DNA of 32,613 nucleotides from Candidatus Margulisiibacteriota bacterium (GCA_034723395.1 JAYEOW010000039.1:1-32613), one strand, 5' to 3'. Numbered from the stretch's first letter, positions 14,457 through 20,371 are shown. A program made the numbers and translations. The notes: a model not told the origin generated them from the sequence alone.

Positions 14457-14861
14457 ATGATAAAAATAAATTGCCCCGTAATAACTTTTTGCCCGTCAAA
14501 GGGGATCAATGCCCGCAGGGCAACATTTATTCCCCTGCTCAATCGGAGACCATACTATGTAAGGGGAATAGATATAGAATTAACAAAAGGTAATAAGCAA
14601 ATAATTATTCATCTAACCTCTTACGCGGCGAAAAACCAAAAACTTGCCGAAGCCGCGCTTGATTTCTTTTCATCAGACCGAAGGGGCCAGATGGCCGCTG
14701 AATCAAGGGCATACATAGATGACCGGCCAACTGAGGTAAAAACAGAGGGGATCACTTTTAGATATTTGCGATTCCACACAGACACTCACCGCACCGAAAA
14801 ACTTTCTACACCCGAAGGACATCAAGTTGCCGAAGTTGTTCTTTCCTATCGATATAAATAA
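14457..14861 (+). CDS. Hypothetical protein (134 aa)
   Basis: ORF fills the gap between ftsK and the methyltransferase; SD-like GGTGAG; no recognised motif. Confidence 0.6.
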   Translation: MIKINCPVITFCPSKGINARRATFIPLLNRRPYYVRGIDIELTKGNKQIIIHLTSYAAKNQKLAEAALDFFSSDRRGQMAAESRAYIDDRPTEVKTEGITFRYLRFHTDTHRTEKLSTPEGHQVAEVVLSYRYK

Positions 14862-15559: not shown

Positions 15560-15847
15560 TTATTTCTTTTTTCGACATCTCGAAGCTGCTTTCAAGAATC
15601 CCCTTTCTCCCTTTATTAAAGCCAACTTTTTTGTTCGAGACCATCTCTTTATCTGAATTTCTCGTTTAGTAGCCGCACTTCTGTTTGGGTGTTCTTCGGA
15701 ATATCTAATCCTTTTCCCTGGGTTGTAGCTCGTATAATGCCCACCTTCTCCGGTTTTATGTTGTCTTAATCGTCTGGCAAGATTATTCGTTATTCCGGTA
15801 TACAAGGCTTTGTTTACACATTCGAGGATGTAGACGTAGTAAGGCAT
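15560..15847 (-). CDS. Small GIY-YIG nuclease family protein
   Basis: YYVYILEC...LYTGITNNLARRLRQH...A.KREIQIKRWSRTKK; start placed at ATG 15847. Confidence 0.92.
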   Translation of the reverse strand: MPYYVYILECVNKALYTGITNNLARRLRQHKTGEGGHYTSYNPGKRIRYSEEHPNRSAATKREIQIKRWSRTKKLALIKGERGFLKAASRCRKKK

Positions 15848-15860
15848 ATATTTCCTTAAT

Positions 15861-15956
15861 CTCAACTCTCTCGCTACGCTCGTTCGCTCGATCTCCTTCG
15901 CCTCGGAACGAGGGACGCAGTCCTGAGCGAGGGAGCATAGCGACCGAGTCGAAGGA
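15861..15956. repeat. REP-like long imperfect inverted repeat / hairpin
   Basis: 15861-15889 (ctcaactctctcgctacgctcgttcgctc) pairs imperfectly with 15925-15954 (gagcgagggagcatagcgaccgagtcgaag); internal hairpin cctcg-gaa-cgagg at 15901-15913. Confidence 0.75.
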
Positions 15957-16713
15957 CTGCCGGGCTTGGACTCGAACCAAGACTGCTTGCTTCAAAGGCA
16001 AGTGACCTACCATTAGTCGACCCGGCAATACTGTTAGTAATCCCTTCTATCCAACCTGCAATCCTACGGTTTAAATCGGTGCTTCGTCTAATCGTTAAAT
16101 TTAATAAGCCGAAATAATTCTTACCAATATTTTTCCTATTCGTTTTGATCCGATTCACTTTAAAATACACATTGTTTAAATATTTTCTACTTATTCCCAC
16201 TTCATCCGCCCAGTATTCAACAACTTCTTTAATCCTATGTTTATTATTTTCATGAATATATATTTCATATCTTATTCTATTTTCCTTCACTTTACAAATT
16301 TCACGAAGCCACTTTATAAACATTTTCATCATGCCGGGGTCCGAATTGCCAAATTTCATCCTCGAAGATTTCCTGTCTTCCCTATCCTTTGCTCCCTCTG
16401 CCCAGTAAAGAATTGTCCCAATTAGCCAAAGTTTTTCACGGTTAATATTTATTTTAGCCGCTTCTACCCTTGCTTTCTCTTTAATTTGCCGGGTGATTTC
16501 CAATCTTTTGGCTCTCTGCACCTGCGCTCCTCGTCTCGCCGCGTCTAATTTTTTTTGGGTCAATCTCTGTTTTTGCTTTTTGCTCAGGCCAACTTCCCTT
16601 AACCATAGCGATAAGGTAGACTTTGCAACAGGAATTTGTTCCAATATTTCCCCATACGAAAATCCTTTTCTTCTTAAATTAACTGCCCTCTTTTTTTCTT
16701 TTGATTTCACCAT
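15874..16713 (-). CDS. HTH + LAGLIDADG-like ('LYWAEG') basic protein whose frame runs through tRNA-Gln
   Basis: N-terminal HTH (LRRKGFSYGEI...VAKSTLSLWLR); GTILYWAEGAK helix followed by FGNSDP, resembling a LAGLIDADG endonuclease core. No stop codon before the tRNA. Confidence 0.7.
   Translation of the reverse strand: MVKSKEKKRAVNLRRKGFSYGEILEQIPVAKSTLSLWLREVGLSKKQKQRLTQKKLDAARRGAQVQRAKRLEITRQIKEKARVEAAKININREKLWLIGTILYWAEGAKDREDRKSSRMKFGNSDPGMMKMFIKWLREICKVKENRIRYEIYIHENNKHRIKEVVEYWADEVGISRKYLNNVYFKVNRIKTNRKNIGKNYFGLLNLTIRRSTDLNRRIAGWIEGITNSIAGSTNGRSLAFEASSLGSSPSPAVLRLGRYAPSLRTASLVPRRRRSSERA
15957..16027 (-). tRNA. tRNA-Gln (UUG)
   Basis: Acceptor stem TGCCGGG/CCCGGCA, D-loop TAATGGTA, anticodon arm CTTGC-CTTTGAA-GCAAG, T-arm CTTGG-TTCGAGT-CCAAG, discriminator G; CCA not encoded. 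Confidence 0.97.
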
Positions 16714-16740
16714 ATTAGAACCACCACAATGATATAATTT

Positions 16741-16768
16741 ATTATACCACCCTTGTTCGTTTTATCAA
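16741..16768 (-). promoter_or_regulatory. sigma70 promoter for the LAGLIDADG-like ORF/tRNA-Gln unit
   Basis: Minus strand TTGATA, 16 nt spacer, TATAAT with extended TG. Confidence 0.65.
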
Positions 16769-16812
16769 ACTCACTTTTGCCATATTTTGCGTCTTTGCGA
16801 TCATTAAATATA

Positions 16813-16840
16813 TGAAATTTTTCAAATAAAACGGCGATAA
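16813..16840 (+). promoter_or_regulatory. Putative sigma28 (FliA)-like promoter
   Basis: tGAAA, 15 nt spacer, GGCGATAA (consensus TAAA-N15-GCCGATAA); ATG follows 10 nt later. Confidence 0.55.
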
Positions 16841-16850
16841 ATAATGCAGC

Positions 16851-19265
16851 ATGAGAATAGGATCAAGAGTACCGTATGGCCACGCTATTCATTTTAAAAG
16901 ACCTGGCCCCGGTCCGGGTGAGGGGAGGGGAAATATCCCCCTTAAAACAACTTCTGCAAAGCCCCCCGGGGAAGCGGGGATCCCCCAGCTAAAGAATGAT
17001 CTCCTTGAAGAACTACGCTCAAAAAAGAGATACAACAATATTGAGATTGAAGCTCTGGAGCGGGCCTTTAACCTAATGGTCAGCCACTACGGGGAAAAAG
17101 AAGCCGATTGGAAAAAAACAGTTATCAACCTTCTTCACGTCGCAAAAACGCTGGCAGCCTGGGGCACCGACCCCCTGGTTGTTTCCGCCGGACTTCTTCA
17201 TCTCATGCCCGTCGACGAATTGGCCCGGGAAAACATTGACCCTCGGGTAGTTGACCTGATAAAAAGAAAAAGCATTCTTGGATCTTATTTATTTATCCCT
17301 CTTATTGGAAAGATATCGGAGCGTGAAGCAGATTACTTGTTAAAAATGTGCCTGATGCAGGAAGGAAACAGGAACGTCTGGCTTCTTGAGGGCGCGTGTG
17401 AATTCGCATCTTTATCGACCAACTCCCATACCGGCACGACCGCTTCAAGGGCTTATCATATAACTTCGCGTATACTTAGCCTGTTTGACCTGGATTCAAT
17501 ATCGGTCCTGGTTGAAGATATTTCTCTTCTCCGGCTAGATAAAGAAGAATATCAAAAAATCGAGTCCATCATAACCGCCGCAAATAAAAGATCACGTTTA
17601 GATGCTCTATCACGTCTCAGGACCGTTACAGGGTTGGTTAGCGAAGATCTAGCCCTCAAGGGAATTAAACATCGCATCCAAATCGATGTAAAAAGTGTCC
17701 CGCGAACCCTAAAAAAGATACGAAAGGGGAAGAAATTAACTGACGCAAGCCGGTTCAGGGTTATCATTGAAGGCGCGGCAGAGCAATGCGTCAAAACCAT
17801 GGACGTTGTTACCGAAGACCTGACCGCCCTTGGCTATTATGAACTTACAATGGGGAGGAACAATTTTTTGCACGGCGTTACAATAACTCCCGGCAATAAT
17901 TTTGGGCGGAAGAAGAATGGTTATGAATCAATCCATCTTCATTTCAGAGGCGAAAATTACGAACCGGTAAACGTCCAAATTCGGACCGAAGAGATGCATG
18001 CCGAGGCAGAAGCAGGCTCCGCTTCGCATGGCCGATTCAAATTAAACGGATTGCTGGGAGCCCCGTCTATTGATGAGGCCGGCATTATTAGAGAGAAGTT
18101 AATCGCCAGCGGAGAAAAATATGGAATTCACCGGGGGATAACCTATCGATTATTACCCAACGATGCCGGCAAAAAGGTAAAATTGCTGGATTTGGCTTTT
18201 TGCGTAAATCCGGACCTCGGACTGCGCTGCCCCGAACATGTAGACGTGCGAAGGATCGACCCAAAGACCGGAAAACGAGAAAGGTTAATCCTTAAAGTTT
18301 CTTCCCCGGTTGAAAATGGCGACGTCGTTATCATCAAAAAAGGAAATATCTTATCCAGAAATCCAAATCAGGCCTCAACCGCCTCAACCTCCACCGCATT
18401 AAAATTGGCCACTAGGGGCGTTCTTGATAAGCAGAGAATTCAACAGCGGACTTCCGAAGCAGCCCAGGAAGGGGAAATTGCAATCGAAACCGAACTTTCC
18501 CCCTGGTTCAGGACGTTGACCGAATCAATTCATTCAGCTCTCGAAAGAGATGGGAAAGATCCGGGGAAGGCAAAAATTTATATTTCAAGCTCGCTTTCCC
18601 ATGTTGCGCACGCCAGGTTTGGCCTGGAGGATGAAAAAGGGCTTTTTGTTTATGCCGGATTAGCTAAAGATAGAGAGCAGACACTAAAAAAAATTGTTCA
18701 AGGCATAAAAGATGCTTCCGTAGCATCCGCTTACCTGGTGGAAGAACGGCACACCCGTCTCTGGATGATGGTTCGCGATATTCCAGGAGTTGTTTCTGCA
18801 ATTTTTCTGCTTATTAATAAGCAGAACCTCGGCATAGAGACCTTTAATATAAAACAGGTAACAACTAACTATTCACTGGCAAAAATAACAATGCGGTCGC
18901 GTAAAAAAGATTTCGAATCGGAAATGCGGCATATCCTGGCGGGAGCAAAAAACATATATTCTAATATAACCCATAGGACTAAGGGGATAATGCGCAGGAA
19001 GATCGAGGTCCTTTTCTCCTTAAACCGCTGTAATGCTTATGTGGCCCATAAGATTTCCGCAATGATGGCAAAAAACGGCGCAAATATCGTTTCCGCACAA
19101 ATGGACAAAGATGAATCAAGAGCGAAAATGGCCTGCTCTTTCACAATTTCTGTCCCGATAGGTTCACTAGATTCTTATATAAGAAATTTGAACAGAAGAA
19201 TTGAACTATTGAAAAAATCAATAAAGTGGCTGCGTGTTTCTCCCCTTTCCATCGATAAATACTAA
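16851..19265 (+). CDS. Divergent long RelA/SpoT homologue (HD-like, synthetase-like, TGS-like, ACT-like domains), catalytic residues degenerate
   Basis: HVAKTLAAWGTD..VVSAGLLH, KNGYESIH, VQIRTEEMHAEAEAGSASH, LLDLAFCVNPDLG..C, VENGDVV, MVRDIPGVVSAI. Confidence 0.82.
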   Translation: MRIGSRVPYGHAIHFKRPGPGPGEGRGNIPLKTTSAKPPGEAGIPQLKNDLLEELRSKKRYNNIEIEALERAFNLMVSHYGEKEADWKKTVINLLHVAKTLAAWGTDPLVVSAGLLHLMPVDELARENIDPRVVDLIKRKSILGSYLFIPLIGKISEREADYLLKMCLMQEGNRNVWLLEGACEFASLSTNSHTGTTASRAYHITSRILSLFDLDSISVLVEDISLLRLDKEEYQKIESIITAANKRSRLDALSRLRTVTGLVSEDLALKGIKHRIQIDVKSVPRTLKKIRKGKKLTDASRFRVIIEGAAEQCVKTMDVVTEDLTALGYYELTMGRNNFLHGVTITPGNNFGRKKNGYESIHLHFRGENYEPVNVQIRTEEMHAEAEAGSASHGRFKLNGLLGAPSIDEAGIIREKLIASGEKYGIHRGITYRLLPNDAGKKVKLLDLAFCVNPDLGLRCPEHVDVRRIDPKTGKRERLILKVSSPVENGDVVIIKKGNILSRNPNQASTASTSTALKLATRGVLDKQRIQQRTSEAAQEGEIAIETELSPWFRTLTESIHSALERDGKDPGKAKIYISSSLSHVAHARFGLEDEKGLFVYAGLAKDREQTLKKIVQGIKDASVASAYLVEERHTRLWMMVRDIPGVVSAIFLLINKQNLGIETFNIKQVTTNYSLAKITMRSRKKDFESEMRHILAGAKNIYSNITHRTKGIMRRKIEVLFSLNRCNAYVAHKISAMMAKNGANIVSAQMDKDESRAKMACSFTISVPIGSLDSYIRNLNRRIELLKKSIKWLRVSPLSIDKY

Positions 19266-20371
19266 TTCCTCTTCCGCTCTCCCGCCGTCAGCTTAAACAC
19301 CTGTTTCAATAGATCTGAATCCGCATCGGTCATCTTTATCCCCCGCCGCCACATCACCGCGATCGCCGTTTCGACCGCCCTTTGAATATTATGGATATAT
19401 TTGTTCCCCCAGCTGAAAGAAGGAGTCGCCTTGGGCGTCACCCCTCCCCCAAAAACATTTGCGGCAACTCCGATCGTTGCCCCAGTAGTAATTAATGTTC
19501 CGATCCCGGTCTTGGCGTGGTCGCCGATAAAACATCCGACAAATTTTTCCCCGGTATCAACCCTTTTCCCGTTAACCAGCATCTTGACCGGATTATAATT
19601 ATTTTTTAGATCCGAGTTGGTCGTTCCCGCCCCCAAGTTTACCCACTCCCCAACATATGAATGCCCGATAAAACCGTAGTGCTGCTTATTAACCCGCCCG
19701 TGAAAAATCGATTCCCCAACCTCTCCGCCAACCCTACAATCTGGACCAATCGAGAGCGGTCCCTTTAAATAAGTTAAGGGTTTAACAATTGTCCCTTTAC
19801 CGATAAAGATCGGGCCGCCGCGGGCATCGACCACCGAATTTGCTTCGATTGTTACCCCTTCATCGATAAAAACCTGGCCCCGATTATAAAAAACAACCGA
19901 TTTATCGATCTTAATTTTGTTCCGCTTCTTTTTTCTTAAGTAATTCCAATCTTCTTTGACCTGCTCTCCATTTTCTCTTATCAAGTCCCATAGGTTTTTT
20001 GCCACTTTTACTCTTATCTTTTTTATCTTTGCTTTTTTGCGGACCTGGTCAAAGGTTCCGCTGACCGCCCGGATGGCGATGATCTCGTCCCCGGCAACAA
20101 AAACCTGGTCCTGACCTTTTACAGTGATCTCTTTCGCCAGCCTTGCGTCCATCAGGACCCTTCCGTTAATAAACAACCCCTTTTCAAACTTCATAAGCTT
20201 GTTCCCGGGGAGGTAGTAGCGGCAGCTGTGCTCCGCCTTATTCTTTGGATAATGGCGAATAATCTTTTCCGCTAAAGTCGAGATCCCGCAGCGCAGATTA
20301 TAAACCGGCCGGGTCCAGGTTAGCGGAAGAAACTTTTTATATCCCTCGTCTTCGTAAATTATTATATTCAT
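19262..20371 (-). CDS. GlmU-related putative sugar nucleotidyl/acyl transferase with hexapeptide repeats
   Basis: FLPLTWTRPVYNLRCG N-terminus; NKQHYGFIGHSYVGEWVNLGAGTTNSDLKNNY. Confidence 0.85.
   Translation of the reverse strand: MNIIIYEDEGYKKFLPLTWTRPVYNLRCGISTLAEKIIRHYPKNKAEHSCRYYLPGNKLMKFEKGLFINGRVLMDARLAKEITVKGQDQVFVAGDEIIAIRAVSGTFDQVRKKAKIKKIRVKVAKNLWDLIRENGEQVKEDWNYLRKKKRNKIKIDKSVVFYNRGQVFIDEGVTIEANSVVDARGGPIFIGKGTIVKPLTYLKGPLSIGPDCRVGGEVGESIFHGRVNKQHYGFIGHSYVGEWVNLGAGTTNSDLKNNYNPVKMLVNGKRVDTGEKFVGCFIGDHAKTGIGTLITTGATIGVAANVFGGGVTPKATPSFSWGNKYIHNIQRAVETAIAVMWRRGIKMTDADSDLLKQVFKLTAGERKRN

Follow-up and report, generated by a model that had tools for sequence, protein, structure and literature searches.

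Long RelA/SpoT homologues (RSHs) have been described as bifunctional enzymes (Rel, SpoT), as synthetase-only enzymes (RelA) and as hydrolase-only enzymes (the SpoT of Moraxellaceae). According to the available text of PMC7983052, D264 and E323 of RelSeq form the catalytic, Mg-coordinating pair of the synthetase centre, R241 and R269 sandwich the adenine of ATP, and Y308 stacks on the guanine. In the regulatory half of these proteins, a His of the TGS domain (H420 in B. subtilis, H432 in E. coli) stacks on the CCA end of the tRNA, as stated in the accessible part of PMC7797070, and Val and Ile are ligands of R. capsulatus Rel's ACT domain, as reported in the portion of the review PMC6606846 that was available. 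Both RelA and A. baumannii SpoT retain a dead catalytic domain that serves in regulation (PMC9974481, available sections). Here we describe a gene at positions 16851..19265 (+ strand, stop codon included) of a stretch of 32,613 nucleotides from a Candidatus Margulisiibacteriota bacterium (GCA_034723395.1 JAYEOW010000039.1:1-32613; the whole stretch is called the window below), which encodes a divergent long RSH of 804 amino acids (aa) with substitutions in both catalytic centres. The gene is selectively maintained and works beside a canonical bifunctional Rel. With a probability of roughly 0.5, we consider its product to be a sensor that acts off the ribosome, responds to nucleotides and amino acids and would not carry out canonical (p)ppGpp synthesis.

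The open reading frame (ORF) is uninterrupted across 804 codons, and the ATG at 16851 is the sole in-frame ATG, GTG or TTG upstream of codon 76. A later start at codon 76 was rejected, since this codon already falls within sequence conserved with the relatives, and the start at 16851 therefore stands. The Pfam model RelA_SpoT (PF04607) matched residues 285-398 with 43.9 bits against a cut-off of 27, and the HD_4 model (13.3 bits, cut-off 27.2) as well as the ACT_4 and ACT models (20.5 and 13.6 bits, respectively, cut-off 27 for both) stayed below their thresholds. The models of long RSHs were not reached: TIGR00691, for bifunctional Rel/SpoT-RelA proteins, gave 57.4 bits (cut-off 499.2), the RelA equivalog NF008124 gave 32.1 bits (cut-off 728), and a further NCBIfam long-RSH model gave 29 bits (cut-off 947). 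The hhalign comparison between a profile of 14 family members and a profile of 10 canonical Rel proteins returned a probability of 99.9 and an E-value of 1.5e-35 over 654 aligned columns. The protein is a long-class RSH, in which the HD fold, the synthetase fold, the TGS domain as well as a regulatory region at the C terminus lie in one chain, and the intact, full-length RSH proposed in the initial annotation is thus borne out by the open frame, the profile alignment and the PF04607 score.

All features of the gene lie on the + strand. The chain starts with a Pro/Gly-rich extension (residues 1-45, 16851..16985) of 8 Pro and 9 Gly, which is predicted to be disordered, with a predicted local distance difference test (pLDDT) score below 50 for residues 1-41. 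It is followed by the HD-fold, pseudo-hydrolase domain (residues ~60-215, 17028..17495), which was assigned by matches to alarmone-hydrolase folds, and by the synthetase-fold (RelA_SpoT) domain, whose pocket is remodelled (residues ~273-400, 17667..18050) and which was assigned by Pfam, by structural comparison with VIA and by its invariant columns. A TGS-like beta-grasp domain without the CCA-stacking His (residues ~422-495, 18114..18335) was placed by hhalign and by the strand/helix pattern of the predicted model; a helical linker (residues ~496-621, 18336..18713; DSSP helices 511-521, 527-566 and 582-621) connects it to a tandem ACT-like module (residues ~622-804, 18714..19262), which was located by VIA matches and contains the invariant P645. 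The TGS-like region, the two ACT-like regions and the N-terminal extension of about 45 residues had all been proposed earlier, and they were found again here, the ACT units by structure matches, with Pfam ACT scores below the cut-off.

The hydrolase centre is dead and the domain is a pseudo-hydrolase, because HD_4 scores only 13 bits, the HD dyad reads HL (H117-L118, 17199-17204), and the metal-ligand Asp of the canonical ADRLH motif is replaced by Cys183 (17397-17399); both substitutions were seen in the translation and in the hhalign alignment. In the synthetase-fold domain, one half of the catalytic Asp/Glu pair is kept: the Mg-binding Asp is present as Asp298, and the catalytic Glu of ExQIRT is Asn374 (17970..17972, within NVQIRT at 17970-17987), which is Asn in 14/14 members. 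Asp298 belongs to the segment TDASRFR (residues 297-303, 17739..17759), which hhalign placed on the canonical YDLxAxR and which also holds the retained Arg303 and a family-specific Arg301. In this profile alignment the canonical DLxAxR aligned with D298-A-S-R-F-R303; the pairwise HMMER alignment to RelSeq misplaced the Asp. Regarding the adenine sandwich, RelSeq R269 corresponds to R303, and the first adenine-stacking Arg of GRxK (the R241 equivalent) is Asp279 in the segment DVKS (residues 279-282, 17685..17696; invariant in 14/14), in which Lys281 is kept. The guanine-binding loop is retained as KKNGYESIH (residues 354-362, 17910..17936), where K354, N356, Y358, S360 and H362 do not vary within the family and equal their canonical counterparts, and the helix Lys (K289), Q376 and R378 are also kept in the profile alignment. 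Two further segments differ, namely NNF (residues 337-339, 17859..17867), which stands for the canonical (R/D)DY by hhalign and puts an Asn338, invariant in the family, at the position of the Asp, and SHGRFK (residues 392-397, 18024..18041), which stands for AHWxYK with a Trp to Gly394 change, within residues 389-405 of pLDDT below 50. The acceptor side is thus intact, as is half of the metal site; what has changed is the donor side together with the second carboxylate, and the replacement of Glu by Asn374 is the single change that speaks strongly against canonical synthesis. The readings HL, DVKS, NNF, NVQIRT and SHGRFK of the initial annotation were each confirmed by the translation at the positions given above.

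These substitutions are a property of a family. The search of 5.8 billion proteins yielded 13 relatives of 798-829 aa (one of them partial) with 37-46% identity, and the next matches were canonical Rels at E ~1e-4. The changes in the catalytic motifs go beyond chance, because the same substitutions are invariant in 14/14 aligned members that are 36-46% identical overall. The 14-row alignment contained 68 invariant columns, which were distributed as 33 of 128 columns in the synthetase fold, 17 of 156 in the pseudo-hydrolase and 1-7 in each later domain, i.e., 0-11% outside the synthetase; the synthetase-fold domain is the best-conserved part. Domain-wise conservation was used in place of the ratio of nonsynonymous to synonymous substitution rates (dN/dS); the synonymous sites are saturated, because the protein of the closest relative with DNA, from genome G109, is only 44% identical. 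The identities to the orthologues in genomes G109 and G110 were 44% and 37% for the RSH protein under study, 79% and 78% for Rel, and 37% and 41% for a hydrolase-type paralogue, respectively, and relatives at 31-46% identity agree with the former in length and in the invariant motifs. A match at E <= 1e-20 was obtained in 7 of the phylum's 146 genomes, the source genome included; carriers made up 5 of the 72 high-quality genomes and 4 of the 15 genomes of the window's own family. The clade, a small one, has so far turned up in a few relatives of the source genome, and one of its proteins, identical in the tree to the G109 protein, is labelled Candidatus Margulisbacteria by its source. The back-translated-pattern search of genome contigs found no family members, all 80 kept loci being canonical RSHs of 22-30% identity, and the protein-atlas search returned only ordinary RSH clusters (0.90-0.92).

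The exhaustive profile search of 1.84 billion representative sequences found 51 proteins at E <= 1e-30, most of them about 800 aa long and matching nearly the whole profile (positions ~60-815), and canonical Rels matched its N-terminal half only, with at most 120 bits. In a quick maximum-likelihood tree of 86 rows and 338 columns, the proteins of about 800 aa formed one clade of 54 rows with a support of 93 in the Shimodaira-Hasegawa-like approximate likelihood ratio test (SH-aLRT), and the window protein belonged to a nested group of 24 rows (SH-aLRT 96). Position 374 is Asn in the crown of this inner group and Ser or Met in further members, and it is Ala in the sister pair P0033/P0037. The outer members of the clade (such as P0030, P0042, P0048 and a paralogue from genome G122) have no HD dyad and keep the Arg, DDY/DNY and the Glu; by these motifs they resemble synthetases of the RelA type to which a tandem ACT end is attached. 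They share the length, the pseudo-hydrolase and the C-terminal layout with the window protein, which, unlike them, lacks the catalytic Glu; since these more distant members keep the Glu, the window protein is a derived branch of a clade of pseudo-hydrolase/synthetase proteins. P0028, which keeps both the Arg and the Glu, is nested within the Glu-less clade in the quick tree, and the approximately unbiased (AU) test did not reject a tree uniting all 23 Glu-less rows (p 0.397), a result compatible with one or several losses. The wider clade is itself an unnamed group of long RSHs, comprising about 50 clusters at 50% identity, in which a pseudo-hydrolase is combined with a synthetase that seems intact and with a tandem ACT end. 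The initial annotation had suggested classification by hidden Markov models of RSHs and a phylogeny, and these assign the protein to PF04607, leave it outside TIGR00691 and NF008124, and place it in the distinct 54-row clade.

The larger set of sequences also bears on the change at position 279. Among the 86 rows, Arg at 279 went without Arg at 301 in 52/52 rows, and a residue other than Arg at 279 went with Arg301 in 31/34 rows, the three exceptions being 'c' paralogues of other genomes; within the clade of ~800-aa proteins every member without Arg279 has Arg301. The swap is also found in P0034, P0044 and P0046, which keep the Glu, and the Asn at the DY position is found in the Glu-keeping P0028, P0030, P0035 and P0046. 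The change at 279 would therefore be a swap of the Arg and not its loss, and it is not counted as damage, because Arg301 appears wherever Arg279 is lost, also in Glu-keeping members. The earlier claim that both centres are altered is borne out, by the dead hydrolase and the Glu to Asn374 change, and Asp279 and Asn338 would not count as damage. In an independent-pairs test, only 3 pairs lay on well-supported branches, and the sign test for the 279/301 coupling gave p 0.25; for an acid at 279 against the loss of the Glu the median p was 1, the test being underpowered.

The AlphaFold model built from the family alignment had a mean pLDDT of 81.4, with residues 1-41 and 389-405 disordered. The top full-length match in Foldseek was SpoT 7qpr (E 6.4e-19), followed by RelA and Rel. 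By VIA, model residues 39-388 matched B. subtilis Rel with Z 25.3 and residues 35-620 matched 6yxa with Z 22.0, the synthetase fold matched RelQ/RelP with Z 12.8-13.8, and residues 54-236 matched small alarmone hydrolases with Z 10-11. At the C-terminal end, residues 632-804 matched the threonine deaminase 8y1j with Z 12.7 and a root-mean-square deviation of 2.9 over 145 residues, and residues 630-804 matched the regulatory domain of the Ile-bound threonine deaminase 9d2s (Z 12.0) and the aspartate kinase 3l76 (Z 13.8). The translation contains no Cys/His zinc-finger motif in the protein and no Cys/His cluster at residues 496-700, the only cysteines being at positions 167, 183, 313, 451, 460, 727 and 762, and P645 of an ACT-type DxPG loop is invariant in the 14-row alignment. 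The C-terminal end is thus predicted to be a tandem ACT module and not a zinc-finger and RRM pair, because of the matches of residues 630-804 to threonine deaminase and aspartate kinase modules and the missing Cys/His cluster. In the TGS-like domain, the position of the CCA-stacking His is occupied by Asn453 (18207-18209, by hhalign), and by Ser in most of the relatives.

The source genome (1.68 Mb, 97% complete) has four long-RSH-like frames, and no short RSH was found in it with PF04607. A search for sequencing runs gave one DNA data set, which may come from the source sample, and no RNA data set. A canonical Rel, as anticipated by the initial annotation, is encoded at C35:21022-22977 (TIGR00691 686 + 110 bits; HD_4 169, RelA_SpoT 147, TGS 75 and ACT_4 73 bits), so the gene under study is not the sole RSH. 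On the same contig, C35:10048-12177 encodes a hydrolase-type paralogue, which keeps the HD dyad and has an eroded synthetase fold, and C29:63419-65659 encodes a third paralogue of 747 aa, in which RelA_SpoT is the only recognized domain and lies at 508-635, behind 500 residues of unfamiliar sequence. In each of the five other carrier genomes that were tested, a Rel exceeding the cut-off is likewise present, along with hydrolase-type paralogues. The hydrolase-type ('b') paralogues show Glu279, Arg301 and Leu374 with an eroded guanine loop. A further RSH type of 830-890 aa, which retains the HD dyad and has Arg where the Glu would be, was seen in G109, G110 and G122.

A conserved protein, missing canonical signatures and a Rel alongside leave the two options that had been named at the outset, a pseudo-enzyme or an enzyme with changed chemistry, as the right pair to weigh. 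In the mechanism that we favour, the protein would carry out neither canonical synthesis nor canonical hydrolysis of (p)ppGpp; the preserved synthetase pocket would bind either GDP/GTP or (p)ppGpp as its guanine nucleotide, the ACT pair would bind an amino acid, and the signal would be passed by protein-protein contact, e.g., with Rel or with the hydrolase-only paralogues, away from the ribosome. Two precedents support such a sensor, namely the regulatory use of dead domains by RelA and A. baumannii SpoT and the Val and Ile binding seen for the ACT domain in R. capsulatus Rel. Several observations weigh against it. A pocket so strongly conserved would suit an active enzyme just as much as a receptor, and Asn338 and the Arg swap are no argument for inactivity, because Glu-keeping members have both. 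Asp279 is confined to Glu-less rows (22/22); the carboxylate may thus have been relocated, and the protein may still be catalytic. Invariant columns are scarcest in the ACT regions (1-4%), whose Pfam scores are below the cut-off, the genomic context offers no clue to a partner protein, and the ligand and the output of the protein are, in their entirety, what we infer. An active enzyme with a rewired site, in which Asp279 supplies the lost carboxylate and Arg301 the lost Arg, and which transfers pyrophosphate under ACT control, perhaps with another donor, acceptor or metal, is accordingly considered possible, although less probable than the sensor. In its favour are the synthetase fold as the most conserved domain, the retention of Asp298, Lys281, Lys289, Arg303 and the whole guanine loop, the 279/301 coupling that includes Glu-keeping members, and the restriction of Asp279 to rows that have lost the Glu. 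However, the deeper Glu-less relatives have Ser, Met or Ala at 374, and the Glu-less P0026 and P0029 have no acid at 279, which looks like relaxation instead of a newly defined triad. The 'b' paralogues combine the same pattern of an acid at 279, Arg301 and a residue other than Glu with an eroded guanine loop, so this pattern can accompany a dead domain, and the covariation depends on only three independent well-supported pairs. The rewired site nevertheless stays alive as an explanation, because the pocket is preserved, unlike that of the SpoT pseudo-synthetase.

The initial annotation had also considered a decoy for the ribosome or tRNA or a dominant-negative inhibitor of Rel, i.e., a silent copy that competes for starved ribosomes or pairs with Rel. 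The full-length long-RSH architecture would suit it, the ribosome-bound RelA structures 5kpv and 5iqr match the model with Z 21, owing to the N-terminal half, the genome has a canonical Rel that could be the target, and the in vitro synthesis of pppGpp by wild-type Rel is inhibited when the catalytically inactive D264G form is in excess (PMC7797070, in its available text). But the TGS His is not kept, the zinc-finger/RRM end is replaced by the tandem ACT module, and the invariant nucleotide pocket is not needed by a pure decoy, so that competition on the ribosome finds little support and this explanation as a whole is improbable; inhibition of Rel by an off-ribosome heterodimer may occur and would overlap with the sensor that we favour. 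A toxin-like or defence RSH (toxSAS/CapRel), acting on tRNA or making ppApp, is very improbable. The synthetase fold does match CapRel 7ztb (Z 11.4) and Tas1 6ox6 (Foldseek E 5.7e-3), but Rel, RelQ and RelP are matched more strongly, the gene lacks a bicistronic partner and lies at a conserved position, convergent with housekeeping genes, no PADLOC model matches, and the catalytic Glu is absent; in the available text of Jimmy et al. (PMC7229694), the toxicity of toxSASs is described as strictly dependent on a functional synthetase active site. A decaying, functionless gene copy, which would account for the faster evolution relative to Rel (44%/37% against 79%/78% identity to the G109/G110 orthologues), can hardly be reconciled with the intact frame of 804 codons, the length and invariant motifs shared with relatives at 31-46% identity, the conserved chromosomal position and the confident AlphaFold model. 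Simple decay, against which the initial annotation had proposed dN/dS as a check, is the least probable of all these explanations.

The RSH gene is monocistronic, its neighbours are convergent with it, and its position is conserved: an NTP_transf_4/hexapeptide gene and an acetate kinase gene converge with it in the window as well as in G109 and G112, and in G110 acetate kinase and ApbE are on the same side and separated from the RSH gene by a gap. The scan for ApbE located it in the window and in both G109 and G110. The promoter/terminator scan of 16500-19600 gave counts no higher than those of shuffled sequences (5 vs 4.5 and 3 vs 4.5), and PADLOC found 0 families for the RSH protein and two neighbouring ORFs. 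Upstream of the gene, a tRNA-Gln(ttg) at 15954-16028 lies within the 3' part of a 279-aa ORF (15874-16713, - strand) that has no Pfam and no PADLOC match and adjoins a GIY-YIG ORF (15560-15865, - strand), and both G109 and G110 have a large serine recombinase of about 498 aa at the same site. This site looks like a variable, possibly mobile spot, because G109 and G110 hold the recombinase where the window has other ORFs. Elsewhere in the window, a 134-aa ORF without Pfam or PADLOC match lies between ftsK and a methyltransferase gene (14457-14861, + strand), and in G112 an 855-aa ORF without Pfam match (L124:3126-5690, - strand) is divergent from the RSH paralogue of that genome.

The disordered N-termini of several relatives share an SRRSxE motif and a start of the form M[IV][KR]INL[LI]P. 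The start was found in L092, L093, P0003, P0007-P0009, P0011, P0014, P0024 and P0046, with some variation: the second residue is missing from P0011, the motif closes with SP in P0014 and P0046, and P0003 is degenerate. It resembles the (E/D)[KR]INL[ML]P junction of the PilM-PilN fusion proteins of this lineage. The [KR]INL[LM]P motif of PilN is the PilM-binding peptide. PilM and PilN are joined in a single frame (about 520-547 aa) in the source genome (C1:3772-5382, - strand), in G109 (two copies) and in G110, and fusion loci of relatives are L129, L130 and L131. The window protein starts with MRIGSRVP, and the PilN-type motif is absent there and present in several relatives only. The complex prediction for the PilM part of G109 (1-358) with residues 1-60 of the orthologue from G109, which was run without controls, scored 0.00 in both runs, a score that speaks neither for nor against such a complex.

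If the sensor is confirmed, this genome of 1.7 Mb would hold four specialised long RSH paralogues, i.e., Rel, a hydrolase-only protein, a divergent third copy and the sensor. A receptor of this kind would mean that the alarmone synthetase fold is reusable as a sensor, and that a direct, ribosome-independent amino-acid input to alarmone control exists in a little-studied candidate phylum; a rewired enzyme would instead show that catalytic residues have been relocated in nature within a nucleotidyltransferase fold. Full-text searches and the available text of the RSH classifications PMC3153485 and PMC7229694 gave no account of a conserved long RSH lacking both canonical centres, and the supplementary tables of the latter two may list such proteins. 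We tentatively suggest that the protein is the first hs-type long RSH, with both catalytic centres abandoned, in which the nucleotide pocket is the most constrained part, that is, an alarmone/GTP-binding receptor fused to an amino-acid-sensing tandem ACT module. In a bolder variant, the rewired site, with the carboxylate moved to 279 and the Arg to 301, may catalyse a reaction other than canonical (p)ppGpp synthesis.

As compared to the known systems, canonical Rel (RelSeq 1vj7, B. subtilis 8acu/6yxa, T. thermophilus 6s2u) superposes on residues 39-388 with Z 22-25, and differs from the window protein in the catalytic signatures and the C-terminal domains. The regulatory domain of IlvA and the ACT pairs of aspartate kinase superpose on residues 630-804 with Z 12-13.8, at only 9-12% identity. 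E. coli RelA (hS) is, like the window protein, a long RSH with a degenerate hydrolase followed by the synthetase fold and TGS, and it also works beside a hydrolase-bearing long RSH, but unlike the window protein it keeps the Glu/Asp/Arg set, the CCA-sensing His and the zinc-finger/RRM end. A. baumannii SpoT (Hs; 7qpr) is the best full-length structural match and, by the available text of PMC9974481, a precedent for a silent synthetase fold that serves as a regulatory domain; in that protein the hydrolase is active and the adenine- and guanine-stacking Arg and Tyr are lost, and in the window protein the hydrolase is dead and the guanine loop, Asp298 and Arg303 are invariant.

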